A stretch of DNA of 64,000 bases from Escherichia coli (GCF_003334765.1 NZ_QOWT01000002.1); one strand, 5' to 3'; shown: positions 39,230-52,964, counted from the stretch's first letter. The notes: a model not told the origin generated them from the sequence alone. Program-made: numbers and translations.

Positions 39230-41071
39230 TTACTGCTGTGTTGCCTCAGTAGCAAGCAGCGGCCTGATGGCATTTGCAGCGTTACTCAACGCTCTTTCAT
39301 AGGCTGGCGTTCCAGCTTTAGTGTTTGCCAGACGTAAGAGAGCATTCCTTGCTGCTTTGGACTCATACAAACGCATCATTGCACCAAAGCCAGCCTCAAG
39401 CCCCATTGATACACCAAGAGTCGCAGTTGCGCCAATCGTCCTTATCCTGTTGGCTTGTGATTGCCCCGTCTGAGTTACTACATTTGCGGTGTCTGACCTT
39501 GCTGTTTGCTGTAGAACTTCATGAAGAGCATCAAGCTCTTTCATGTGCTTTCCAGAAAAAATAGTGTTGTAAATTTCACCGCCTGACTGAGATTTCAGCT
39601 TATTAACTTCAGTGATGAACTTGGCTGGAGAGTCACCGGCCTTTTCCGCTATTTTGCTGACGTAAGCTGCACGCATAGCATCTTTCCCTTTATCATCCAG
39701 GGCGCTCCATATTCGTTTCACGTCAGATGGTTTTCTGCTTAATACAACGGTATTTATAAGTTCAGGACTGGCTTCACTGCTTGCCTTGTTGAGCTTGTTA
39801 GCAATGTTTTTATTAAGCACCTTATTATAAACGTTTGCATAATCAGAATTTGCTTTAAGGTATTTTGCTGCGTCTGATGCACCGAGGTTTTTAGCAACTG
39901 CGTTACGAAGGTCTTTTGACATTGCATTCTCTACCATATTGGTAGCTGCTTTTGCCTGGTTGGGGAAGACCATAGCATCTCCCTGAACATTAGATCTAAA
40001 TGCTGTTCTGTGCTGACGCAAGAGATCAAACGTAACATCCAAATCAGTTGCAGGGTTTGCTAATTCTTCACGTAGGTTACGCAAGGATGTAAGCAGGCTT
40101 TGATTGGCAGACGTCCCAAGCCGTTCCTGTCTTGCGATCGCTGTATTCAGAGCATTCATGGTATTTGTGGTATCAACTGCGGCATTACCCATTTTATTGG
40201 TGACGTCATTGATAACAGCGCCAGCGGCATCCTTCCGCCCCCTTAACGTGGTGGTAAGAGATTTCACCACATCATCAGGGTTGTACTCACCAAAACGGTC
40301 AAAATAATTACTTACCAGCTTACTACGCGTTGCATATTGCTCCGCTCGCTTTGAGCCTGTCCCGAGCAAAGCCCCCTCGGCATCCTGAGTTAGGCCGCGA
40401 GTGAAAGCATTTTTCGGCGGGATAACATCAGATGTCATTGGTGTCACGCCCATCGATTCTGATGTGGCAATTTTCTTCGCCACTTCTGGCGCAATATCAC
40501 CTTTTATAGCCGTTATTCCACGCCCTATTCCCTTTGCTGCTGCGGAAAGAACACCCTGAGTGGCAAGGTTAACTCCGGCATTTTTAGCTGCATTTTGTGC
40601 GAAATCGCCTTTCTGATTTGCGGCCTCTGCCAGTGATCCAATAGCCATGCTTCCTGCCGTTCCAACTCCTGGAACTAAATACCCACCAATTGTTTCACCG
40701 GCTTGCGCGTAGGGGTCTGTCGGTCTGTCTACTGGACGATAAACATCATCCAAAACCTTGGGTCCACCAAGCCCCTGACTGATTGCATTAATCAGACTTG
40801 CGCCGCCCTGCAATACGTCAAATGGTATGTTTACCAGACCACGACCAGCCTGTTCTGCAATTTGCCCTGCACTTTGACCACCAGTGAGCCAATCGCCAGC
40901 TTGTTGCATCAATGATGGTTCTTCCCGTGTTGGTGCATTATTGGCCTGATTAACTGTTTGTTGCTGAACAGCCTGACCAGCAAAATACTCATCAATGGCG
41001 GTGCCAATATCTTCGGTGCTCGTACCATCAGGAAAGGTAAATGTCTTACCGTTTGCAGTTACTTTCATCAT
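39230..41071 (-). CDS. P22 gp16-like DNA ejection protein
   Basis: 613 aa, size and position next to immI as in P22; Ala/Gly-rich. Confidence 0.6.
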
Positions 41072-41337
41072 TCCACCGTAAATTGAATGCCTGATTTTGA
41101 GGTATATGATCCAACCTGATTCCGTGGTTCTCCTGAAGGTGTCGAATCTTGTGCTGGCGCTGCGTCAGTATTCATTGACATATACCGCTTAACGGCACTC
41201 CCCAATGATTCACCTTTTTTAACATCCAACCCCAATATCTGACCGCCATTACGCGATTGTCCAGGGTTGCCATTCGCGCTCATCCACTCGGCTTTAAACT
41301 CATTAAACTGCGCGTTTCGTCGCTCAAGGTTTGCCAT
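41068..41337 (-). CDS. small ORF overlapping upstream gene (possible frameshift remnant)
   Basis: 89 aa, overlaps 41280-42197 ORF by 58 nt in another frame; 4-nt overlap with gp16-like start. Confidence 0.3.
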
Positions 41338-42197
41338 TGCATCAAGCCATCTTGCGACCGTCTCAGGGTTTCCATGTTTACTGACAGCTTAGGTGCTTCG
41401 CTAATCAACTGCTGAGCCTTTTCCTGCGCTTGCTGCATCTTAAACCCGAACTCTTGCTGATCCAGAGCCAAGCGTTGTGCTGCGATATTGTGCCCAGTCA
41501 TTGCTGACTGATAGGAAAGGTTTTGCCCTCTCGCCTGAAGTGCTTCACCAGCCTGATTGCTGCGGATTGTCTCTGCCAGCCTGCCTCGGTCAATCTCACG
41601 ACCAGCCATCTTGTCCTGAACAGCAAACGCCTTTTCTGGTCCAAGCGCACCGAGAGACATAGTAGTCAGCATGTGTGATAGCTGCTCTGGATTCTGGATA
41701 CCTGTCTGAATCATCCAGTCAGCATTAGCACCAACGCGATTTAACCTGTCCTTGTTGTCAGTAATGAATTTACTGTAGGCTTCCGGTCCCTGAGAAAGAG
41801 CGACGTTAGCCCTCATGGCTAAATCGCCCATATCGTTGCGTTGCTGATCATTAAGACCGGAAAACGCCTGTTGTGCCTGTGCAACAAACGCTGGATTTTC
41901 CTGGGCAAACTTAAATAGTCCCGATGGATCACCAGAAGCCCATGCATCAGCGTGAACCTTATTGAACGCACTAATAGCTTTCTGTTGCTGTTCCTGATTG
42001 TAAATATCAGCAACTCCAGCCAGACCACGTAACGCGGTCAGGCCAACGTTATTTGCACCTGAGCGAGCCAGTTCATTGTTTTCGCGGATCAGACCAAGCG
42101 TTGCGTTAATGTCGCTTGCCTTTGGCGCATTCTCATTTTGCGTACCGATGCCAGCCAGAAAACCACCAGAATTAATACCCTGTTGCCACGTAGCCAT
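41280..42197 (-). CDS. P22 gp20-like ejection protein (possibly truncated)
   Basis: 305 aa, Gln/Ala-rich; positioned between gp7-like and gp16-like genes. Confidence 0.5.
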
Positions 42198-42207
42198 TGA
42201 TTACCCC

Positions 42208-42903
42208 TTAATAAAGCAGTGAACCAAGCAGACCGATACCAGCACCGATACCAGCACCCCACGGAGTTGATGAACCAATTAATTTCGCAAGTCCAGCCCC
42301 AGCAATAGCACCAGACGCACCTCCGCCAATAGCAGATTGCATTGCTGATGGTCTGTTGGCATTTGCCGCTGCAAGAGCCGCACTTTGCTGCGAAATCTGA
42401 CTCATGTTGTTGGCATATGTCTGCCCGGCGTTTGCCTGACCTTGCAGTGCGCCAAGACCAATATTTGCCAGATTCTGGTAGTTGTTCATCTGACCAGATA
42501 GCCATTGCTGACCAAGCGTTGGTGCGATTGTTGCTAACTGATTACCGGTTGCAGTGGAACCCAATCCACCTGTTGCTTCCGCTGCCGCCAGACTCTGATA
42601 GCGAGCCTGACCAGCAAGATCTTTGTACTGCTGAGAGTTGTAATACTGGTTAAGTGCCTGACCTTGCCCTTCCAGAGACGATAAGTTCTCGAGGCTGCCG
42701 ACATACTTATCAGCCAGAGGAGTAAACGGCTTCAGGTTGTTCATGATGGTGTTGAACTGCTGATTTTGCAGGTCTGCGGCATACTTCTGAGCTTCTGCTG
42801 CATACTTTGCGCTTTTATCAGAACTGCCACCTTTCCCGCCTTTTTCAGGGCAATAAGGTTCCTCGCCGCGCAGTTTTCTGCCCAGCTTAAATGCATATAA
42901 CAT
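42208..42903 (-). CDS. P22 gp7-like ejection protein
   Basis: 231 aa from internal Met (MLYAFKLGRK) of a 460-aa ORF; Gly-rich hydrophobic C-terminus. Confidence 0.5.
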   Translation of the reverse strand: MLYAFKLGRKLRGEEPYCPEKGGKGGSSDKSAKYAAEAQKYAADLQNQQFNTIMNNLKPFTPLADKYVGSLENLSSLEGQGQALNQYYNSQQYKDLAGQARYQSLAAAEATGGLGSTATGNQLATIAPTLGQQWLSGQMNNYQNLANIGLGALQGQANAGQTYANNMSQISQQSAALAAANANRPSAMQSAIGGGASGAIAGAGLAKLIGSSTPWGAGIGAGIGLLGSLLY

Positions 42904-43590
42904 GGCTAACGCCGAGATGCCGTATTGCGCATAGCTCATACAATCAATTTCGCCTTCGCAAAGTACAACCGCCCTCACGCCAGCGTCCAGAGCCTGCCAT
43001 CCGAACAGACAAGGTTCGCAATCACCTTCTGCCATAATGACTTTCTTCCCGTCCGGGCGCTCAGTGCTGATTCGCTTGACCTGCAACAACTCACCATCGC
43101 GTTTGTACGGAATCACCAGAGCATCCAGTTCTCGCTCTCCATTCCACACCTTGCCGCTGACAACCTCGTAGCGCTTTACGATTTCTGGCGATATGCCACG
43201 CGATTGCAGGTACTCAAGATGGGATTCTGTTCTGGTAACGTAGCGGGCGATTTTCTTGCGATCAGGTCTGGAGAATTTCTTCTCACGTCTGGCATCGAAA
43301 TGGTGATCGTCATCCTTGATACCGAGAAATGCTTTCGCTTCCTGCATAGCCTGATGCAGGTTAATTCCACGACATGCCATCCACAAATCAAGCATGTCAC
43401 CGCCGTCTCCCTCAGCGAAATCAGCCCATTTTTTCTTGCCGCTAAGGTTGACCTTAAGGCTGTTTCCCTTGTCACCGTTGACGTTACCGGCAACCCACTC
43501 ATGCCCCTCTTTCTTGCCGTTTGGCAACAGGTGCGGAGCCACCCTGTCAACCTGCGCCCAAAGCAGGTCGCTAAGTTCACTTGGCGTCAT
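42904..43590 (-). pseudogene. truncated DNA primase fragment (toprim), reads in frame into gp7-like gene
   Basis: 229 aa ending VVLCEGEIDCMSYAQYGIS (DnaG-like toprim EGxxD...AQYGI), no helicase/C-terminal part. Confidence 0.55.
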
Positions 43591-43697
43591 GATTCCCTCA
43601 GATTGAGATTTTTAAACCAGAAATCGACAAACGAAATACTTAACCAGCCGTGGTTATAACCAGCGACCAGTAGCGATTTGATTTTTGATTTCATGGT

Positions 43698-44558
43698 TCA
43701 CCTGTCGAAAAACACGTAGCCAGTTTTCGATACGGTGATTGCGGATGATGGTTTGGATTGTGGTTGAATGGTTTCTGGCTTTTCGTCGTTCCAGCGCTGA
43801 CCGTTCAGGTAGCTCGATGGTAACAACCTGTCGAATCCGAACTGCTTACCATTCCTGCATGCGATGTCTTCTGCCAGCATCGTGGCAAACTCGCTTGCCG
43901 TACCCCTGGTAGTTTTACGCCATTCCCTGAACTGTGTTCTGAATGCCGAAGCTGCGTTTTTCTTCCCGGCTTTCCGCATGCCTGCACACCAGAATATTTC
44001 CTCGAATGCCTTGTCGGTTTCTTCGTGACGGTCAGGTGATTTTTCACACTCCGTCCGAACACTTTCGGACATAGTGTTTTTATTATTTCTTTTTTCTTTT
44101 GTAATAGTTTCTTTTGTGTGTCCCTGTTTTGGTGACAGCGCTGTCACCGTTTTGGTGACACTTTTTGTCACCAATGCGGTGACATTATCACCAGAGTAGT
44201 GACACCCTTCGATTTGCCATTCCTCGATGTTCTTGTTAGGCCCGATTTGCTGGCCTTCGCGAAGGATAACCTTCATCGCGATAAGCTCATTCTTGGCCTT
44301 GTTTACCTTCTGTCTTGGCAGCCTGGTAATTTGAGCTAACTGACTATCAGAGATGCGATCCATCTTTTTACCGTAGCCGTATGTTTTACGGCATATGGCG
44401 TGGGCAACCTTGCTCTGATTTTTCGTTAAATCTGCGCCGATAAGCTCTTCATACAGGGCATTTGCAAGACGGGTATAACCATCTTCAACTTCTGCCACAC
44501 GACGCTCCACAGGCCGTTGTGAAGGCCTTAAATGTGTTACGGTTGCAAGATTACTCAT
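43698..44558 (-). CDS. replication initiation protein, lambda O-like N-terminal domain
   Basis: 286 aa; N-terminal domain typical of phage O proteins. Confidence 0.65.
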
Positions 44559-44697
44559 GACCTTTCTCCTTCTGCATCAGCTTCACTTTTTCCAACTCAG
44601 CCCGGAATCGACCAGGCTGCTTGAAGCTGGACAGGAAGCGATCACGTAGTATGTGTTTGTGAATTTTGTCCTGGTAAGGACTGAGTTGTTTTGTCAT
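44551..44697 (-). CDS. small hypothetical protein
   Basis: 48 aa with AGGAG RBS; stop overlaps O-like start. Confidence 0.35.
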
Positions 44698-44731
44698 AAT
44701 GACTCCTGTGGATTGATCCAGTCTTTCTACA

Positions 44732-45010
44732 TCAGGCCTCGAAGAATTCGCCGTTCTTCGGGGCTTTTTCTTTTGTCAGCATTCTGGCTACTTGCTTAGC
44801 CAGTTCCGCCAACTCCTCGTCTTCAACACCCCATTCAAGAACAGCAAGAAGCATTCCCATTTTGGGGATGAAGCTGTCTTTCCATCGCGAAATTTGCGAT
44901 TCATTAATCCCTAACGCGTCGGCAACCTTTCGCTGACCACGTACAGCAATTCGATTCAGGATGTTGCTTGTAATTGCATTCGCTTTCTTGCGAGTACTTG
45001 TAAGTTGCAT
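44732..45010 (-). CDS. cII: CII-like transcriptional activator
   Basis: 92 aa; [25 protein letters not shown] closely parallels lambda CII. Confidence 0.85.
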
Positions 45011-45068
45011 ATGTAAGTATTTCCTTAACTAATAAGAAGTTATGCGCATCAACTTATGCGCGTTGTAT

Positions 45069-45112
45069 TCCCGCATTTCGGCGGGAATGAGGACCATGAC
45101 TGTTAAAGAGCG
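45069..45112 (-). promoter_or_regulatory. nutR (boxA plus boxB hairpin)
   Basis: minus-strand cgctctttaa (boxA) then tcccgc-cgaaat-gcggga hairpin, between cro and cII. Confidence 0.7.
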
Positions 45113-45118
45113 GTGTTA

Positions 45119-45319
45119 CTATTTGTTTTTCTTGTTGCTTGGGAAAGGACGAACTTCCTCTCCAATCACACTGCCATCAGGCTTTACCGTAACCATAATG
45201 TTACGGCCTGCCAGAATGGCCTTGCTGATAGCGCACTGGATTACACCAAAGTCACTGGCTGCTTTAGCCTGTCCATGGATTTTGGCGTAATCGGCAAGTG
45301 TCATTCGAATCATATGCAC
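45119..45319 (-). CDS. cro: Cro repressor
   Basis: 66 aa; C-terminus [11 protein letters not shown] matches lambda Cro. Confidence 0.85.
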
Positions 45320-45343
45320 TCTCCGTTATTAACCATGAACAAA

Positions 45344-45408
45344 GAATACTACAGGTATTCAAAGCAATCAATACTCAGGGTATTTTTAGTTTAAGTACCT
45401 TAGCTATT
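45344..45408. promoter_or_regulatory. OR1-OR2-OR3 operators with PR/PRM
   Basis: gaatactacaggtattc, caatactcagggtattt, taagtaccttagctatt; centres about 24 bp apart between divergent cro and cI. Confidence 0.7.
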
Positions 45409-45419
45409 AGAATTAAGCT

Positions 45420-46136
45420 ATGGAAAATAAAAAATCACTGACGACAGAACAGCTCGAAGACGCTAAGCGGCTTAAGGCTTTGTATGAGTCAAAAAAGAAA
45501 GAATTGGGAATAACCCAATACTCAATCGCTGATGAACTGGGTATCACCCAAGGAGCGGTAGGGCATTATCTTAATGGCAGAAACGCGCTAAACGTTGAGG
45601 TCGCATCTGGTTTTGCACGTTTGTTGCAAGTCTCAATTGCTGATTTTAGCCAGTCAATTGCTGCCAAGGTTGCAGAACAGGCAGAAAGCCTTAAGAGCGA
45701 TGCCAACGTAAGGTATGCAGGGGAATACAGAGCAGGAAAGAGGTATCCGGTGTTAAGCAGTATCCAGGCTGGCTCGTGGTGTGAAGCATGCGAACCATAC
45801 ACCATTAAAGACATAGATGTTTGGCTTGAGTCTGACGCGCATATTCAAGGTAATGCGTTCTGGCTTAAAGTGGAAGGTGATTCAATGACGGCACCGGTTG
45901 GGTTAAGCATTCCAGAGGGAACATTCGTTCTTTTCGATACCGGAAGGGAGGCGATCAACGGCAGCTTGGTCATAGCAAAACTTTCTGACTCTAACGAAGC
46001 AACATTCAAGAAGCTGATAATCGACGGCGGAAATAAATACCTCAAGGGACTTAACCCTGCATGGCCTCTCGTGCCAATCAATGGAAACTGCAAGATTATA
46101 GGCGTTGCAATTGAGACAAAACTAAGGCTGGTTTGA
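45420..46136 (+). CDS. cI: CI-like repressor (HTH plus S24 autopeptidase)
   Basis: 238 aa; N-terminal LTTEQLEDAKRLKALYESKKKELG; C-terminal GDSM...FKKL Ser/Lys dyad; Ala-Gly site. Confidence 0.9.
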   Translation: MENKKSLTTEQLEDAKRLKALYESKKKELGITQYSIADELGITQGAVGHYLNGRNALNVEVASGFARLLQVSIADFSQSIAAKVAEQAESLKSDANVRYAGEYRAGKRYPVLSSIQAGSWCEACEPYTIKDIDVWLESDAHIQGNAFWLKVEGDSMTAPVGLSIPEGTFVLFDTGREAINGSLVIAKLSDSNEATFKKLIIDGGNKYLKGLNPAWPLVPINGNCKIIGVAIETKLRLV

Positions 46137-46155
46137 TCACGCAAGGGGGGCGCTT

Positions 46156-46524
46156 ATGGTTGGAACCGCTATAGCAAGCTTTTTGGGGATGTTGGCAATC
46201 TCAACAATTTACGGCTTAGCGCATGCTTTTATTGCGAAATCTCTATCAGAAAAAATAAGCCAGGCTTGGGCGCATAGATCAGCTCGTTTCATGATTCTAG
46301 TGGTCATAGCAATACAAGGGATATCTGCATTTATCCTCTATGGATCAAGCTTATACCTGTTGTATCAAGGAGCGACATTTACGCCTTACACCAGTGATTA
46401 CGGAACTCTATACGATGGTAGTGAAGACATCTCTATGGCTTGGATCGTCTTTGGTTTATCTATGGCCGTGTCTGTTGTAGCAGACATCATTAAGGTAATT
46501 CTCGTCTTAACCTTCGCTGACTAA
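46156..46524 (+). CDS. small 4-TM membrane protein in rexB-equivalent position
   Basis: 122 aa, four hydrophobic segments, RBS aagggggg, starts 20 bp after cI stop. Confidence 0.55.
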   Translation: MVGTAIASFLGMLAISTIYGLAHAFIAKSLSEKISQAWAHRSARFMILVVIAIQGISAFILYGSSLYLLYQGATFTPYTSDYGTLYDGSEDISMAWIVFGLSMAVSVVADIIKVILVLTFAD

Positions 46525-46654
46525 CCCATAATCCCGGCAGCAATAGCTATCGGGATCCACTTCACATATCCCGCATAAAAAGCACTGAACAAGCAGATAC
46601 CGAAAAAATAAATATCCTTTGTATTCATTTGTTTATCATTATTTCATCAAAAAT

Positions 46655-46696
46655 AAATACCTTGGGTATTTACACAATAAAATACCTACAGTATTC
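46655..46696. promoter_or_regulatory. OL operators/PL
   Basis: aaataccttgggtattt and aaatacctacagtattc share the OR half-sites. Confidence 0.6.
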
Positions 46697-46743
46697 TTTA
46701 GCCATCAGCAGGACGCTGGAAGCCAAACGGAACAGATTGGCAG

Positions 46744-46784
46744 GCTCTTTAACATTGATGGGATTGTCCCGCCGAAATGCGGGA
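46744..46784 (+). promoter_or_regulatory. nutL (boxA plus boxB hairpin)
   Basis: gctctttaa then tcccgc-cgaaat-gcggga, identical boxB to nutR. Confidence 0.7.
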
Positions 46785-46891
46785 ACCAAAGAGTAGTTGG
46801 CTTTGGGGTGACGTGAAGTGCAGCTGCACGACGGCAACCGGAAGATAAGCACCCGGCGCGTCACCGCCAAAGCCAATCATCGGAGGTCAAC

Positions 46892-47188
46892 ATGATAATC
46901 GTTACTTATCTGGCTGATGATAACACCAGAAATCGCCGCAGAGCACGCAGACAGGCTCAACGTGAACAGGCAATGCAAGAACAGCGACTTGCGCGAAAAA
47001 TTGCGCTAAAGCTCTCTGGTTGCGTCAGAGCAGATAAAGCAGCATCACTCGGAAGCCTTCGCTGCAAGAAGGCAGAAGAAGTCGAGCGTAAACAGAACCG
47101 TATTTACTACCGCAAGCCACGCAGTGAAATGGGTGTGACTTGTGTTGGTCGCCAGAAAATGAAATTAGGCAGCAAACCACTTATTTGA
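46892..47188 (+). CDS. N: N-like antiterminator
   Basis: 98 aa; Arg-rich motif TRNRRRARRQAQREQ; C-terminus GVTCVGRQKMKLGSKPLI parallels lambda N. Confidence 0.85.
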   Translation: MIIVTYLADDNTRNRRRARRQAQREQAMQEQRLARKIALKLSGCVRADKAASLGSLRCKKAEEVERKQNRIYYRKPRSEMGVTCVGRQKMKLGSKPLI

Positions 47189-47196
47189 GGTGAGAT

Positions 47197-47667
47197 ATGA
47201 CAAAATCATGGAGCGTACCTTTTCCTGAATCAGAAACTGAACATGATGGAATGCCTGTTTTCTGGAGATTCCAAGCGACAGTTGAAGAAGATGGAATCAA
47301 AATATTCGCACTTCAATATATAGCTTTTCATCAGACAGAGCATTATGCATGGTTGGTTCCTGCGCATTGGATTGTTGATTTTAAACCAGCACCAAATCAG
47401 TGGTTACAGGAATGGAAACAAAAGAGAAATAGATATGCAATTAAGAAAGTAGCAAAAAATGCAGAAAGATCTTTTGCATTCCCAACGAAGAAACTTGCCA
47501 TTGAAAGTTTATTGCGCCGGAAGAAATACCATTTAATGAGAATAAAACAAGATTTGGCTGTTGTATCAACTCTTGTTGATGGGATGAAAAATATTGATAC
47601 ATCAACACCAGATATTGAATATAACTTTGGACACAACCAAGAAACAGAAAATTGGGTATTTTATTAG
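47197..47667 (+). CDS. hypothetical protein (moron after N)
   Basis: 156 aa soluble, AT-rich, good RBS. Confidence 0.5.
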   Translation: MTKSWSVPFPESETEHDGMPVFWRFQATVEEDGIKIFALQYIAFHQTEHYAWLVPAHWIVDFKPAPNQWLQEWKQKRNRYAIKKVAKNAERSFAFPTKKLAIESLLRRKKYHLMRIKQDLAVVSTLVDGMKNIDTSTPDIEYNFGHNQETENWVFY

Positions 47668-47771
47668 TACGAATAAGCACTGTGTATTCATTCCAACGAG
47701 TGAATACACGGAGCAATGTCGCTCGTAACTAAACAGGAGCCGACTTGTTCTGATTATTGGAAGTCTTCTTT

Positions 47772-47795
47772 GCCCTCCGATGTGAGGGCTTTTTT
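47772..47795 (+). terminator. rho-independent terminator (tL-like)
   Basis: gccctc-cgatgt-gagggc followed by T6. Confidence 0.7.
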
Positions 47796-47864
47796 ATATG
47801 CATACCAATAACGCTTCACGAGAGGTGTTTATTCATGAGCGTAAACGCTGATTAATGAACGCAG

Positions 47865-48392
47865 TTGATAGGATATAAAATGGCATTTATAAAGATTCTT
47901 GAATTAATTTCCCTAAGTGAGATTAATAATGTTGTCAAATATAACCCTATTTCTGGTGAGTTCACATGGCTAAAATCTTATGGAGCAAGAAAGATAGGTG
48001 GAACTGCCGGAACAATAACAACAAGCGGCTACTTAAGGATTTTCATTAACGGAAGACACTATGCTGCACATAGACTTGCATGGATTATCACTTTCGGTGT
48101 TGAGCCTGAAGGTATTATCGACCATATAAATGGCATAAAGACAGATAACAGAATTTGCAATCTGAGGCTTGCAACTTACTCACAGAATTCAATGAATAGT
48201 AAAATAAATACCCTCAACAAATCAGGTTGCAAAGGAGTCACATGGAAGAAGGAAAGTAGAAAGTGGGCTGCCTATGGGAAATTAAACGGGAAGAAAAAAC
48301 ATCTAGGGTACTTTAATGAATTAGAAGATGCCAAAAAAGCTTACTGCGACTTTGCCAGAAAGCATCACGGCGAATTCTACAGGAGCAAATAA
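47865..48392 (+). CDS. HNH endonuclease with AP2-like DNA-binding domain
   Basis: 175 aa; IDHINGIKTDNRICNLRLAT HNH motif; GVTWKK...YGK..GKKKHLGYF AP2-like. Confidence 0.75.
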   Translation: MIGYKMAFIKILELISLSEINNVVKYNPISGEFTWLKSYGARKIGGTAGTITTSGYLRIFINGRHYAAHRLAWIITFGVEPEGIIDHINGIKTDNRICNLRLATYSQNSMNSKINTLNKSGCKGVTWKKESRKWAAYGKLNGKKKHLGYFNELEDAKKAYCDFARKHHGEFYRSK

Positions 48393-48526
48393 TGAATGAA
48401 TATATTTTAGCGGGTAGCGGCGTCATGTCCGCTTTCTACCCGCACGAATCTGAATTATCACGCCGAGTTAAACAATTAATCAGAGCAGCAAAGAAACAAC
48501 TGGAGGCGTTATGCGCAATGAAATAG
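48392..48526 (+). CDS. cIII: CIII-like protein
   Basis: 44 aa; YILAGSGVMSAFYPHESELSRRVKQL parallels lambda CIII core. Confidence 0.6.
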   Translation: MNEYILAGSGVMSAFYPHESELSRRVKQLIRAAKKQLEALCAMK

Positions 48527-48663
48527 CCATTAATCACCAGATGCTTCGTGCTGCACAGAACAAAGCAGTAATAGCCAGATTTATTGGTGATTCCAAAATG
48601 TGGCTTGAAGCAAATAAAGCGATGAAATCAGCTATCAACCTTCCGTGGTATCGCAGGAAATGA
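48511..48663 (+). CDS. Kil-like small protein (tentative)
   Basis: 50 aa; IARFIGDSKMW resembles lambda Kil; follows cIII as in lambda. Confidence 0.4.
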   Translation: MRNEIAINHQMLRAAQNKAVIARFIGDSKMWLEANKAMKSAINLPWYRRK

Positions 48664-48744
48664 GTTTTACAGATAACTGGTCAGACGAAGAATTCATTCG
48701 TCAGATGAACAAAATGCTCAATCAGCACAAAGAACAGGAGAAAG

Positions 48745-49056
48745 ATGATGATTCTGACTCTGAATGATAAGCGTGAAATATCGCAAATAATCGCAAGTTT
48801 TACTGATGAAGATTACGAGCGAATCAACAGTGAAGTTGATCGCCTCTGCAAACGTTGCGACCCAATAAGCGAAATGCTTCGCTCATATAAACCAGATGAA
48901 CACACTAAGGACGCTATCGACTGGCTGGAAGATGATGACTGTAACTATCAGGAAAAAGCCGCTGAATGGTTCTGGGATGCAATAACCGAAAGAGTTAAGG
49001 CTGAATATGCCTTCGCAATATTTAAACGCAGACACATTTTTGGAGAAGCTGCATGA
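48745..49056 (+). CDS. hypothetical protein (gam/abc-equivalent position)
   Basis: 103 aa acidic, immediately upstream of recT. Confidence 0.4.
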   Translation: MMILTLNDKREISQIIASFTDEDYERINSEVDRLCKRCDPISEMLRSYKPDEHTKDAIDWLEDDDCNYQEKAAEWFWDAITERVKAEYAFAIFKRRHIFGEAA

Positions 49057-49955
49057 GCAATATCGTTGAATTCGTTAAACAGCAAGAGCAGTTATTCTGC
49101 GGAGCATTGACTGAACAGACGGTGACATGGGCTAAGGAAAGCCAGTTTGCAATTCAGTATTTCCAGAAAAACGATTACCTGGCTAAAACAGCACTGGCAA
49201 ATCCAACCAGCGCACAGAACGCCATCATCAATGTTGCGGCGATCGGCATCACCTTAAACCCGGCCAGCAAACTGGCTTATCTGGTTCCTCGCGACGGCAT
49301 GGTGTGCCTTGATATCAGTTACATGGGATTACTTCACCTTGCACAGTCGACAGGATCAATTAAGTGGGGGCAATGCAAACTGGTGTACTCAAACGACACC
49401 TATGAATCAAACGGCCTTGATTCAGCACCAACCCACAAATACAACGCATTTGGTAAGCGAGGCTCTATTGTTGGTGGTTATTGTACGGTTAAAACAGCAG
49501 ATGGTGACTACCTCACTGAAGAAATGAGTCTGGCAGAAATTAAAGCTGTGGAAGCAACGAGCAAGGCAAAGAATGGACCGTGGAAGACATTCTGGGAAGA
49601 GATGGCGCGTAAAACAATAGTTAAACGCGCCAGCAAATACTGGCCTAAAGCCCAGCGACTGGATAATGCCATTCACCTGCTTAACGAAGATGAAGGTATG
49701 CATCAGGAACCAGTTATGCCGCACAAATCAGAGGAAGATATCCGCGAAGATGAACGGAAACGCCAGCAGGAAATTATGGAAAAAGCACAACTTCTTTGTG
49801 ATGAAATGGCTCAGGCAGAAAACATGGATGATTTGAAGCGATATTTTGCAGAAGCATATCGCCTGACATCTGGAATGAAATTGCAGCAGAACGTACAAGC
49901 CATTTACATAGAATGCAAAGCGAAACTGGAGGTTGCCAGTGAGCAAACTGTATGA
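49053..49955 (+). CDS. recT: RecT-family single-strand annealing protein
   Basis: 300 aa; SKAKNGPWKTFWEEMARKTIVKRASKYWP matches RecT signature region. Confidence 0.8.
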   Translation: MSNIVEFVKQQEQLFCGALTEQTVTWAKESQFAIQYFQKNDYLAKTALANPTSAQNAIINVAAIGITLNPASKLAYLVPRDGMVCLDISYMGLLHLAQSTGSIKWGQCKLVYSNDTYESNGLDSAPTHKYNAFGKRGSIVGGYCTVKTADGDYLTEEMSLAEIKAVEATSKAKNGPWKTFWEEMARKTIVKRASKYWPKAQRLDNAIHLLNEDEGMHQEPVMPHKSEEDIREDERKRQQEIMEKAQLLCDEMAQAENMDDLKRYFAEAYRLTSGMKLQQNVQAIYIECKAKLEVASEQTV

Positions 49956-50421
49956 AATTGCCAATGAATACGCAAAATTGATGGATTCAGATTTAGAACC
50001 AGAGATGATTGCTGACACAATAGAAGGCATGGAAGGAGAATTTACCGATAAAATAGAGCAACTTCTTTCCGTCATTAAAAATGAATCTGGTTATGCTGAA
50101 CGCCTCAAGGAAGAGGCAAAGTCACTGAATGAGCGAGCCGCAGTAATTCAAAATAAGATTGACAGCATCAAATCATATATAGCGTCATCGCTTGAAATGG
50201 TTGGCAAGAAAAATATTCGAGCAGGTATTCACCAGGTAACAATCCGCAAACCGTCAGAAACTGTAGAAATCATCGACTCAAGCGCCCTTCCTCCTGAATA
50301 CCTTGAGTTTGAAACGACAATTAAAGCCGACAAACTGGCAATCAAGCACCAACTAAAAGCAGGAATAAATATTCCCGGTGCTCAACTCAAGGTTGGGAAA
50401 CCTTCACTTCTTATCAAATAA
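49933..50421 (+). CDS. Gp157-like protein
   Basis: 162 aa coiled-coil-rich, downstream of recT. Confidence 0.45.
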   Translation: MPVSKLYEIANEYAKLMDSDLEPEMIADTIEGMEGEFTDKIEQLLSVIKNESGYAERLKEEAKSLNERAAVIQNKIDSIKSYIASSLEMVGKKNIRAGIHQVTIRKPSETVEIIDSSALPPEYLEFETTIKADKLAIKHQLKAGINIPGAQLKVGKPSLLIK

Positions 50422-50432
50422 CGGTATCGCCT

Positions 50433-50747
50433 ATGAAAAAGACTCCATGGGAGAAATGGGAAGTCGATTTCTTGCGCGAAGTAGCGGCGACAATGCCAGT
50501 TGAAGTTATCGCTGAAAAACTGGAAAGGACTGAAAAAGCAGTAATGGCAAAAGCAACAAGGATTGGCGCTGACATTGTTAGCCGACTTCGTGGAAGACGA
50601 TGGACAAGAGCCGAAGTATCACTTTTCGGTAAGTTCTCCGCAGAAGAAATAGCAATTGCAACCTGCCGATCAATTTATTCAGTAAGAGCTATGCGATACA
50701 AGCTAAAAAAACTCGATGAAGAAAGAGCAGGCATACGAATAAATTAA
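50433..50747 (+). CDS. hypothetical protein
   Basis: 104 aa basic protein. Confidence 0.4.
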
Positions 50748-50927
50748 CAAAGAGGAATTAATCATGAGAGGGCTTGCATACAATCCCGGCATTCTTCCGG
50801 CAGAAATGATTATTCGCCAACGCGTAAAGCCAATGCCATCGAGAGAGGAATTGCTTAAGAGAAATAGTTTCGGTTCTGTTAATGACAACAAATATCTGAA
50901 TGCGATGTTGCGTAAAGGAGGCAAGCA

Positions 50928-51227
50928 GTGAGTGTATGTCTTATTGATAAACGTCGACGTGGGCAACAAATACCATCTGTTGGAATGCCGAATCACACAT
51001 GGTTTTGCGTACTTGATATCGATGGTATGGATGCGTTGGTTGACACTCGTCATTACTGCGATACCGCAACAGCTACTCCGGCGAAAGCAAAGAAAATGGC
51101 TGCTCTGATAGAAAACTGGACTCCACCTGATGGTTGGTGCAATGGGAATGATCGAGATTGGCACGAAAAAATGAAGGGCTATATCTGCGATTTTTTACGT
51201 AAATGCAACGGCTTCAGGGTGATGTGA
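50928..51227 (+). CDS. hypothetical protein
   Basis: 99 aa, GTG start preceded by aaaggagg RBS. Confidence 0.4.
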
Positions 51228-51228
51228 T

Positions 51229-51636
51229 ATGAACAAGATTGACTATCAGGCACTGCGTGAAGCGGCAGAGAAAGCCGGTGAAGATAAGTGGCAGGCTAAA
51301 AAAATAAATGGTGATTTTTTCGTTATTCGTCACGGTAGTTATACAAGACAGCATGGCTACACATCGTATCAACCCATTGCGGAGATTGATTGTAAGCAAG
51401 TCCGGGATTTTGTTGCCAAGGCTAATCCGGCTACCGTGCTGGAATTACTGGATGAACTGGAAGCAGCAAAAAAGCGCATTGCAGAACTGAAAGCGCGGGA
51501 AATACTGCTCCCGGAACGTAGCAGCATGCTTCATCGAACAGATTTTCACGATGATTACCAAACGGTAATGGCATACAAAGTTTCTGAAGTCATCGATGCA
51601 ATCCGCGCTACTGGCATTCGCATCAAAGGAGAGTGA
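51229..51636 (+). CDS. Ead/Ea22-like protein
   Basis: 135 aa, N-terminus MNKIDYQALREAAEKA. Confidence 0.5.
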   Translation: MNKIDYQALREAAEKAGEDKWQAKKINGDFFVIRHGSYTRQHGYTSYQPIAEIDCKQVRDFVAKANPATVLELLDELEAAKKRIAELKAREILLPERSSMLHRTDFHDDYQTVMAYKVSEVIDAIRATGIRIKGE

Positions 51637-51637
51637 T

Positions 51638-52267
51638 ATGAGCGCTATAACCAAAGAACGTATCAAATTATTCATTAAAAATCCGCTTGATAACGGACTT
51701 ACTCGTGGCGAACAAATGGAACTGGCACGAATTGCACTGGCATCACTGGAACGCGAACAGATTCGCCACGAGCATGCCAAATGGTCTGACTCCACATTTG
51801 GCTGCGTTGGCCCCATTGGTCCACTGAAACACCTCTCAAAAGAGGCACTGGAAGCCGCAGCCGAACCTGACGATCTCAGCGAGTGGGCTGATATGCAGTT
51901 CCTGTTGTGGGATGCACAGCGCCGTGCTGGTATCAGTGATGCTGAAATTACCGCTGCTATGGAAAATAAATTGAAGATCAACATGGAGCGCCAGTGGCCT
52001 GAGCCAAAAGATGGTGAGCCTCGCTTGCACATTAAAGAACCCGGCAACTCTCCGGTAACTCCGGATGGTTGGATAAGCTGTAGTGATCGAATGCCGGAAG
52101 ACACCAAAATGTTACTGGCATTTAGTCAAGGTAAAATCGTGGCCGCATATTGGAACTGGGTTATAAATCCAATTGATTACAAAAAATATAGAGCTTTCAC
52201 GTATTTATCAGGATATATCTTGGATGACGTAACTCACTGGATGCCGCTACCAGAGCCTCCACTTTGA
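51638..52267 (+). CDS. DUF550/DUF551-type phage protein
   Basis: starts MSAITKERIK with RBS aggagag; C-terminal THWMPLPEPP motif. Confidence 0.5.
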   Translation: MSAITKERIKLFIKNPLDNGLTRGEQMELARIALASLEREQIRHEHAKWSDSTFGCVGPIGPLKHLSKEALEAAAEPDDLSEWADMQFLLWDAQRRAGISDAEITAAMENKLKINMERQWPEPKDGEPRLHIKEPGNSPVTPDGWISCSDRMPEDTKMLLAFSQGKIVAAYWNWVINPIDYKKYRAFTYLSGYILDDVTHWMPLPEPPL

Positions 52268-52363
52268 AAGCGAAGCTTATACATATCTTTTACATCAGCA
52301 ATCTATTGTTAATCTCCAATCAATGTTACGTTGTCATCTCACTCATGCTTTGGAGGTAGTGAT

Positions 52364-52543
52364 ATGTCTTGTCCAAAATGCGGTTCTGGAAATATTGCAA
52401 AAGAAAAAACAATGCGTGGATGGTCTGGTGATTATGTGTGCTGCGATTGCGGATACAACGACTCTAAAGACGCATTTGGAGAGCGTGGTAAAAACGAGTT
52501 TGTTAAAATTAATAAAGAACGCGAAGGCAACGAAAAAAGCTAA
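52364..52543 (+). CDS. small zinc-ribbon protein
   Basis: MSCPKCGSG...CCDCG two CxxC pairs; RBS ggaggt. Confidence 0.5.
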   Translation: MSCPKCGSGNIAKEKTMRGWSGDYVCCDCGYNDSKDAFGERGKNEFVKINKEREGNEKS

Positions 52544-52608
52544 TTTATTTATTCATATATGAAAACAATGTAACCAATATTCGAATTGAAGAACTGAAAG
52601 AACACCAA

Positions 52609-52630
52609 GCCGCCTGATGGCGGTTTTTTA
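52609..52630 (+). terminator. rho-independent terminator
   Basis: ccgcc-tgat-ggcgg followed by T6. Confidence 0.7.
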
Positions 52631-52674
52631 TTACCTGATTTGCAGGTTCGATTCCCTATTCGGAGATAGCACTC

Positions 52675-52875
52675 ATGCAACACGAACTACAGCCTGATTC
52701 ACTGGTTGATTTGAAATTCATCATGGCCGATACTGGCTTCGGTAAAACCTTCATCTATGACCGGATTAAGTCCGGCGACCTGCCAAAAGCCAAAGTTATC
52801 CACGGGCGAGCAAGATGGTTATATCGTGACCATTGTGAATTCAAAAATAAGCTCTTAAGCCGCGCCAATGGGTAA
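52675..52875 (+). CDS. torI: excisionase / tor operon inhibitor TorI
   Basis: 66 aa Xis-like winged helix at prophage end adjacent to dsdC. Confidence 0.85.
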   Translation: MQHELQPDSLVDLKFIMADTGFGKTFIYDRIKSGDLPKAKVIHGRARWLYRDHCEFKNKLLSRANG

Positions 52876-52948
52876 AATAGCGGGTAAAATATTTCTCACA
52901 TCTAAAAAACACCATTCCAATCAATCCCCTGCCGCTTCAAGTAGATGT

Positions 52949-52964
52949 CTGCAGGGGACACCAT
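52949..52964. other. attR core
   Basis: ctgcaggggacaccat, direct repeat of argW 3' end. Confidence 0.8.

Follow-up and report, generated by a model that had tools for sequence, protein, structure and literature searches.

Two open reading frames (ORFs) in the ejection-protein region of an Escherichia coli prophage overlap in different frames, which raises the question of whether they are two genes or the broken parts of one. In the window (the whole stretch of 64,000 nucleotides of DNA that was analysed), an ORF listing places both on the minus strand, a 305-aa ORF at 41280..42197 and an 89-aa ORF at 41068..41337, each beginning with ATG. The two ORFs have 41280..41337 in common, a 58-nt overlap whose size is partly conventional as it follows from the longest-ORF convention. 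On identical contigs the automatic gene caller chose a later in-frame ATG, which gives a product of 71 aa whose overlap with the 305-aa ORF is only 4 nt (ATGA). The listing reproduced the coordinates and the 58-nt overlap of an initial annotation, which had proposed that a frameshift or indel split a single ejection-protein gene in a decaying element. Both of the arguments behind that proposal held up. Neighbouring genes were said to overlap by only a few nucleotides, and the 89-aa ORF and the start of gp16 do share 4 nt (ATGA). The combined span of the two ORFs was said to be shorter than P22 gp20, and it amounts to 1130 nt compared with the 1416 nt (471 aa) of the uninterrupted gene in phage N7, in P22 and in prophages of E. 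coli. On the other side of the locus, a gap of 10 nt lies between the gp7-fusion ORF and gp20. The features to which the analysis refers are given below in window coordinates.

32331..52964, unstranded: defective P22-like (Lederbergvirus-type) prophage of about 20.6 kb, with the 16-nt direct repeat CTGCAGGGGACACCAT at both ends
39230..41071, minus strand: intact gene for a gp16-type ejection (DNA transfer) protein, 613 aa (PHROG 770, E=7e-280; Pfam PF26808 on an identical contig)
41068..41368, minus strand: native-frame 3' remnant of gp20, covering residues 372-471 and the stop codon (last 303 nt identical to intact alleles; tblastn 100%; PHROG 917 positions 421-509)
41280..41368, minus strand: out-of-frame tail of the 305-aa ORF, 29 codons plus TGA (three-frame translation)
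41369..41370, minus strand: deletion junction, two A's common to both flanks (prefix and suffix comparison with the intact allele L004)
41371..41377, minus strand: copy of the direct repeat ACATGGA (7 nt) that survives the deletion (the intact gene has copies at nt 821 and nt 1106, flanking both deletion ends)
41370..42197, minus strand: 5' remnant of a gp20-type gene, codons 1-276, with the entire Inj_translocase domain (first 829 nt identical to intact alleles; tblastn 100%; PHROG 917 positions 1-277)
42208..43590, minus strand: chimeric ORF of 460 aa, toprim primase from residue 1 to about 229 in frame with a complete gp7 (profile matches)

The two ORFs and the gp20 family

A PHROGs profile search matched the 305-aa ORF to positions 1-277 (E=3.8e-145) and the 89-aa ORF to positions 421-509 (E=1.2e-27) of PHROG 917, a profile of 509 positions that is annotated as 'released from the phage upon host infection'. 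Because both ORFs match this one profile in non-overlapping parts, the profile evidence identifies them as a split gp20 and not as a chance pattern of ORFs. The initial annotation had predicted that similarity to homologues would change frame within 41280-41390. When four intact gp20 proteins were aligned by tblastn, residues 1-276 fell on 42197..41370 in one frame (100% to the sister allele described below) and residues 372-471 fell on 41370..41071 in the other frame (100%), which places the switch at 41369/41370, inside the predicted interval. The 305-aa ORF is composed of gp20 residues 1-276, ending in ...SVNME, and 29 further residues that are out of frame, and this tail crosses DNA natively encoding gp20 residues about 373-401. 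The 89-aa ORF corresponds to gp20 residues 383-471 and starts at an internal methionine, Met383 (ATG at 41335..41337). A second in-frame ATG of the 3' remnant, at 41281..41283, overlaps the stop of the 305-aa ORF (ATGA). Identity to the 471-aa gp20 of phage N7 and E. coli prophages is 99-100% over the N-terminal 276 and the C-terminal 100 residues, and identity to P22 gp20 is 86% over the N-terminal 249. Pfam PF16928 (Inj_translocase), which covers residues 12-228 of intact gp20, is also recorded on the identical 305-aa product, and the order gp7-gp20-gp16 is the same here as in N7, OkiPb01694, P22 and HK620.

Overlapping frames, with the stop of the first ORF overlapping an in-frame ATG of the second (ATGA), are also what would be expected of two genuine neighbouring genes, or of a programmed ribosomal frameshift that joins both ORFs into one product. 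Programmed frameshifts of the lambda G/GT type likewise involve two frames that overlap within a cluster of phage virion genes. Unlike that system, the gp20 arrangement is not conserved in homologues and its change of frame is caused by missing DNA. The initial annotation had stated that homologues made of two genes with the same overlap would speak against a split gene; every intact homologue is instead a single gene of 449-471 aa, read in a single frame throughout. None of the complete E. coli genomes examined shows the two-frame arrangement, and the top 40 matches carry an extra stretch of about 286 nt. The change of frame coincides exactly with 286 missing nucleotides, and a programmed frameshift could not restore the 95 residues that are missing. 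Two genuine genes or a programmed frameshift are therefore extremely improbable, and we proceed on the reading that a single gp20 gene has been split.

In sequence and in gene order (gp7-gp20-gp16), the split gene resembles the P22 gene 20 protein/Sf6 gp12 E-protein family (PF16928, PHROG 917), since it encodes the Inj_translocase domain and lies between gp7 and gp16. In contrast to members of that family, residues 277-371 are deleted, the frame is broken and no full-length protein is possible, and the continuous ORF of about 450-471 aa with its essential C-terminal region is absent. Given the loss of 286 nt and the change of frame at 41369/41370, the split gene is, as judged from its sequence, a pseudogene derived from the gp20 family and not a functional member. 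A search for sequence-level relatives of gp20 among solved structures returned none.

The 286-nt deletion and the decay of the prophage

The nature of the lesion was established by comparison with a sister allele. The public assembly L004 contains the same defective prophage and the same primase::gp7 fusion together with an intact 471-aa gp20. The window is 100% identical to L004 over 8222 nt on one side of the lesion, and on the other side the two are identical over 4885 nt save for one junction gap; over about 13 kb the 286-nt deletion is their only difference. A prefix of 829 nt and a suffix of 303 nt are identical between the window and L004, while the span in the window is 1130 nt, so that prefix and suffix overlap by 2 nt (AA). 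The missing segment, whose sequence was recovered from L004, is gp20 nt 830-1115, a total of 286 nt with an ambiguity of +/- 2 nt in its position. Since 286 equals 3x95+1 (95 codons plus 1 nt), gp20 residues 277-371 are gone and the downstream part of gp20 is out of frame. The same loss is observed against the 1416-nt gene of E. coli OkiPb01694, with flanks free of mismatches, and against phage N7 (Lederbergvirus). This closest phage matches at 98.5% in two pieces spanning 1711 nt, compared with 1428 nt in the window, and its annotation has a single 1416-nt gp20 gene at the corresponding region. Over a matching stretch of 1501 nt in the window, the 40 best-matching complete E. coli genomes have 1783-1787 nt. 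A single-base frameshift is ruled out, since 286 nt are gone and the flanks contain no mismatch. An insertion in the relatives is likewise ruled out: the 286 nt are in-frame coding sequence, fall within the family profile and are conserved in N7, P22-type and prophage alleles. Of the frameshift or indel originally proposed, the indel and the splitting of one gene stand, and the lesion is not a 1-nt frameshift but an internal deletion of 286 nt.

An error of sequencing or assembly, behind which the real gene is intact, had been raised in the initial annotation as something to exclude. The 305-aa product occurs on three contigs, and three independent assemblies share the deleted allele. Contigs of runs ERR271232 and SRR3951470, from separate archives, match the window at 100% identity for 14 kb and 11.4 kb, respectively, with the junction included. 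Moreover, a 286-nt loss with mismatch-free flanks is atypical of homopolymer or consensus error, and the probability that the gene is in fact intact is negligible. Neither the gp20 deletion junction nor the primase::gp7 junction was found in any complete RefSeq E. coli genome, and a 36-nt sequence across the gp20 deletion junction was not found in representative genomes.

The ends of the deletion lie in imperfect direct repeats. In the intact allele the left site reads ACATGGAAAAAGGCATCGAGACGG and the right site reads ACATGGATAACCCTGAGACGG, and the window reads ACATGGAAACCCTGAGACGG across the joint. From these sequences we infer a deletion by short-homology illegitimate recombination, through either slipped mispairing or template switching. 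The exchange would have taken place between the imperfect repeats ACATGGA-AA...GAGACGG and ACATGGATAA...GAGACGG, and the crossover would lie in the terminal AA. A clean exchange inside the 7-nt repeat would lose 285 nt and stay in frame. Because a 1-nt bulge precedes the AA, a crossover in the AA beyond that bulge would lose 286 nt instead. As a result of the deletion, the upstream frame runs through 29 junk codons, and the native C-terminal frame reopens at an internal methionine as the 89-aa ORF, producing the 58-nt two-frame overlap.

The split gene resides in an element that has lost most of a phage genome. The att repeat copies are located at 32331..32346 (the 3' end of tRNA-Arg(CCT)) and 52949..52964, and the element measures 20.6 kb compared with 38-42 kb for intact relatives. 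Besides the gp20 pieces and primase::gp7, its gene content, read from the identical contig L003, comprises an integrase (the ORF beside the tRNA), a hexapeptide acetyltransferase, the tailspike gene, ant and arc/mnt, a gene of the Rap1a family, gp16 (directly downstream of the 89-aa ORF), O, cII and cro, as well as the repressor and early-left genes. Genes for terminase, portal, scaffold, coat, head completion and lysis are missing from this list. Integrated at att and with its virion genes lost, the element is a cryptic lambdoid/P22-like prophage. The 460-aa ORF matches primase profiles (PHROG 239/510) over residues 2-228 and the gp7 profile (PHROG 598) over residues 230-458, while an intact primase has 626 aa. 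Primase homology stops at 42901 and late-region homology begins at 42908, just upstream of the gp7 ATG, which puts the junction at about 42901-42910. The fusion replaces everything from primase to gp14, and this scar of a large deletion bears out the claim that the element is decaying. The event behind it took the remaining primase, the nin region, the late regulator, the lysis genes and all head genes.

The order of the two deletions can be read from natural alleles. Among 10 contigs that encode the primase::gp7 fusion protein, at least L004 has an intact gp20. Because L004 combines the fusion with an intact gp20, comparison of the alleles indicates that the primase::gp7 deletion preceded the one in gp20, which arose in a sub-lineage. 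The loss of gene nt 830-1115 accordingly followed an earlier and much larger deletion. A P22-like, tailspike-bearing remnant in E. coli O104:H4 (PMC3303846) resembles this prophage in its stepwise decay by deletion with loss of late genes, and in having kept the tailspike, O-antigen acetyltransferase and immunity genes. Compared with cryptic-prophage pseudogenes, the present case differs in that natural sister alleles reveal the order of the two steps and in that the second step ends at a recurrent breakpoint. The sister alleles provide a clean, ordered example of stepwise prophage decay.

Taken as sequence evidence, these comparisons make it almost certain that one gp20-type gene was split by a 286-nt deletion in a crippled P22-like prophage at tRNA-Arg(CCT), which is to say by ordinary decay, and none of the results speaks against the deletion itself. 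The split gp20 is an ordinary pseudogene, and the initial annotation was right in substance when it took the two ORFs for a single ejection-protein gene that an indel had broken in a decaying element. On its own, the broken gene is of consequence for annotation only: the 305-aa ORF and the 89-aa (or 71-aa) ORF should be merged into one pseudogene. In addition, the 460-aa 'hypothetical protein' should be annotated as a primase::gp7 deletion chimera.

Work on P22 bears on what the remaining product could do. P22 gp20 has 471 aa, all three E-proteins are needed for injection, and amber mutants without only the last 33 or 66 gp20 residues give non-infectious virions (PMC10461980). Because P22 mutants without these C-terminal 33-66 residues already fail, a product ending at residue 276 would be non-functional as an ejection protein, and it would also have no virion to be packaged into. 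The truncation could nevertheless have been kept as useful, the gp20 N-domain and/or the C-fragment with gp16 being retained by the host and interfering, for example, with the ejection machinery of P22-like phages that enter the cell or are being assembled in it. The Inj_translocase domain (residues 12-228) does survive complete, and many independent remnants retain exactly gp20 372-471 and gp16, either with the 89-aa ORF or as an in-frame cII fusion (at least 24 contigs). The stop/start overlaps would also permit coupled translation into gp16. However, the window and its intact sister are separated by zero substitutions, which leaves no time for visible selection, and the genes are preceded by an early operon under repressor control, the prophage having retained its repressor. 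The tailspike-proximal arm, moreover, may merely hitch-hike with the O-antigen acetyltransferase and immunity genes. We consider a selected truncation highly unlikely and retain the reading of ordinary decay.

The recurrent breakpoint at gp20 nt 1114

The recurrent breakpoint at the right end of the deletion is the only part of the locus that might repay further work. Contigs encoding the exact 89-aa product and close variants of it were retrieved in a look-up keyed on the retained C-terminal ORF. They present many unrelated contexts, in which gp20 homology always starts ...|AACCCTGAGACGG (gene nt 1114). Eleven distinct left partners are joined at this nucleotide with the window included, at least ten others being in E. 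coli prophage remnants.

Left partner 1: gp20 nt 829 (the window)
Left partner 2: gp20 nt 421, downstream of a truncated rep_O (L009)
Left partner 3: truncated gp10 (L010)
Left partner 4: intergenic site beside an LprI-like gene (L011)
Left partners 5-9: L012, L014, L015, L077 and L079
Left partner 10: ninB codon 7 (L083)
Left partner 11: cII codon 43, giving an in-frame cII::gp20C fusion of 143 aa

At least 24 contigs and three complete swine ETEC genomes carry the cII::gp20C fusion. By right-flank haplotype, the junction alleles are interspersed among the intact ones: the window does not differ from L004 and L061 (both intact), L014 has 8 differences from intact L024, and L010 has 15 from intact L060. 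Because of this interspersion, the breakpoint events are independent. A mobile cassette starting at nt 1114 is ruled out, as the right-hand homology ends at 1472, 2104, 2140, 2506 and >3303 nt. At the joint, AA is present in the native left sequence of L009, L010, L011 and the window (AAC in L010 and TAACC in L011). The cII and ninB partners presumably have the same AA, judging by the lambda genes. Five of the 11 left partners end in GGAA, compared with GGATAA at the gp20 site. As a separate observation, local repeats alone do not explain why the right end of the 286-nt deletion matches the breakpoint of at least ten other unrelated deletions.

The pattern is also polar. Among complete E. coli genomes, the 100 nt to the left of the site were found in 301 records and the 100 nt to the right in 305, with four records right-only, 0 left-only and 0 split; a left-retaining product would read ...ACATGGAT joined to foreign DNA. 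Furthermore, a contig in two assemblies (L016, GCA_002190275.1) ends exactly at nt 1114. The eleven left partners at exactly the same nucleotide, the interspersed haplotypes of independent events, the AA microhomology at the joint (L009, L010, L011 and the window), the four right-only records against 0 left-only and the end of the L016 contig all favour a site-specific DNA end at gp20 nt 1113/1114, which would have started the deletion and been joined upstream through 2-5 nt of terminal homology. We hold this explanation tentatively, at slightly less than even probability. The end may have been a replication-arrest point, a nick, or a transient IS flank removed by copy-out excision with an IEE-type primase-polymerase. 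IEE-promoted IS excision yields both precise excision and larger deletions, and the model proposed for it has a fixed flank end, a 3'-OH from which the strand switches to 2-4-nt microhomologies (bioRxiv 10.1101/2023.06.07.543989).

Several results weigh against a site-specific end. No IS was found beside AACCCTGAGACGG in the viral contigs, representative genomes and fetched loci searched, samples that a transient insertion could escape; the IS66 element of strain 1368KP sits in gp7 and not at nt 1114. DNA folding around the site is unremarkable (z-scores -1.2 to 0), and a hairpin or other structure was rejected as its basis. In a local alignment scan of the prophage attP against L004, the gp20 site fell outside the top-scoring windows and its similarity to attP was no better than chance, which argues against a secondary att site for the prophage integrase. 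Self-targeting by CRISPR was rejected as well, there being no spacer-sized extra matches in complete genomes. In an unbiased sample of metagenome loci the nt 1114 junction occurred in 0 of 48. The boundaries seen in those loci were mosaic-allele boundaries at nt 576 and nt 1372, one IS end at nt 712 and one of the L009 precursor type at nt 366; a mosaic-allele boundary at nt 1114 was not seen. Finally, most examples of the junction derive from the look-up keyed on the C-terminal ORF, which favours the region, though not the exact nucleotide. As compared by eye, the sequence is not known to fit a DnaA box, a gyrase consensus, IS10 ends or any Ter, dif, hix/gix or type IIS site.

Bierne, Ehrlich and Michel reportedly described deletion hot spots at replication-arrest sites (terB). 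The terB hot spots and the IEE-promoted deletions are like the present case in having one fixed and one variable endpoint, 2-5 nt of homology and polarity. Unlike in those systems, no Ter-like site, bound protein or IS has been identified at nt 1114, and the resemblance is one of pattern only. Replication arrest and IEE-type excision are thus hypotheses, drawn by analogy, for the origin of the breakpoint. That nt 1113/1114 (TGGAT|AACCCTGAGACGG, window 41368-41370) genuinely is a polar, site-specific hotspot of deletion, at which an end recurs and joins upstream prophage DNA via 2-5 nt of homology, carving out gp20C-gp16-tailspike remnants, is a possibility that we place just short of an even chance. 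If the hotspot is real, the 286-nt deletion of the window would be the smallest known product of the process. If the breakpoint is a defined DNA end, a specific agent would be whittling P22-like prophages down to the tailspike-bearing remnants that are common in pathogenic E. coli, and the site would offer a natural substrate for the study of microhomology-mediated deletion.

Two minor observations concern neighbouring endpoints. Two further junctions lie nearby, at gp20 nt 1038 and nt 1095. In addition, cII codon 43 is twice a left endpoint, joined once to gp20 nt 1114 and once to a lambda-type J gene in strain Z1323CEC0010.

Breakpoint at nucleotide 1113/1114 of gp20

In the window, the right end (41368-41370) of the 286-nt deletion in the P22 gene 20-type ejection-protein gene (gp20) corresponds to nucleotide 1113/1114 of the intact 1416-nt gene. 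Prophage remnants elsewhere in E. coli carry at least 11 different deletions that share this breakpoint to the nucleotide. Public loci with the breakpoint include L009-L012, L014, L015, L019, L068-L075, L077, L079, L083 and L086-L088. All of the deletions ending at nucleotide 1114 kept ...AACCCTGAGACGG together with the downstream ejection gene gp16, while the left partners (the sequences joined upstream) differed from one another and the homology at the joints extended over 2-5 nt. At this site, complete genomes contained four right-only cases and no left-only case.

The end of contig LYBC01000044.1 (GCA_002190275.1; locus L016) also falls exactly at gp20 nucleotide 1114. This contig, which was found in two assemblies, matches the side of the window carrying the 3' gp20 remnant and gp16 at 100% identity over 3.3 kb. 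A stop at this nucleotide would be the expected outcome of two competing left contexts or of a repeat at this position.

A gp20 allele inactivated by another route was observed in L084 (Logan SRR34702954), in which codon 374 is changed from GAG to TAG (AACCCTTAGACGG); this nonsense change lies 7 nt downstream of the gp20 breakpoint.

Chimeric primase gene and cII breakpoint

42208-43590, (-) strand: 460-aa deletion-chimera ORF, junction at about 42901-42910

This ORF consists of a complete gp7 joined in frame behind residues 1-about 229 of a toprim primase, and it is the mark of a lost segment comprising the remainder of the primase through gp14. Its GenBank entry (CAM3376988.1) reads hypothetical protein and nothing more.

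A lambda-type cII gene was cut at the identical nucleotide (...CAGCAGGTGGAA|) in two different remnants, and this site may represent a second recurrent breakpoint.

L019, position 12001 (ETEC1706): cII joined to gp20 nucleotide 1114
L090, position about 4103 (strain Z1323CEC0010): cII joined to the C-terminal part of the J tail-tip gene

Accessory genes and the attR-side tRNA repeat

33857-34528, (+) strand: hexapeptide-repeat acetyltransferase gene, between integrase and tailspike
38465-39205, (+) strand: Rap1a/Tai-family immunity-protein gene (111 aa) and adjoining 129-aa ORF, between gp16 and mnt
47880-48392, (+) strand: 170-aa protein with HNH_3 and AP2 domains, early-left region
within 52640-52964: 16-nt copy of the tRNA-Arg gene's T-arm part (TTGCAGGTTCGATTCC), 309 nt upstream of the attR core

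The integrase-tailspike interval is the usual place of O-antigen-modifying genes in P22-like prophages, and the acetyltransferase gene is still present there although virion genes have been lost. The Rap1a/Tai-family gene occupies the position that in P22 is held by sieA. The 129-aa ORF beside it gave no family match, and its N-terminus is signal-peptide-like. The combination of HNH_3 with AP2 is characteristic of free-standing homing endonucleases.

The T-arm copy may have been left behind by an earlier integration event at this tRNA. Between this copy and the attR core lies a small ORF that, judged by eye, is AlpA/excisionase-like.
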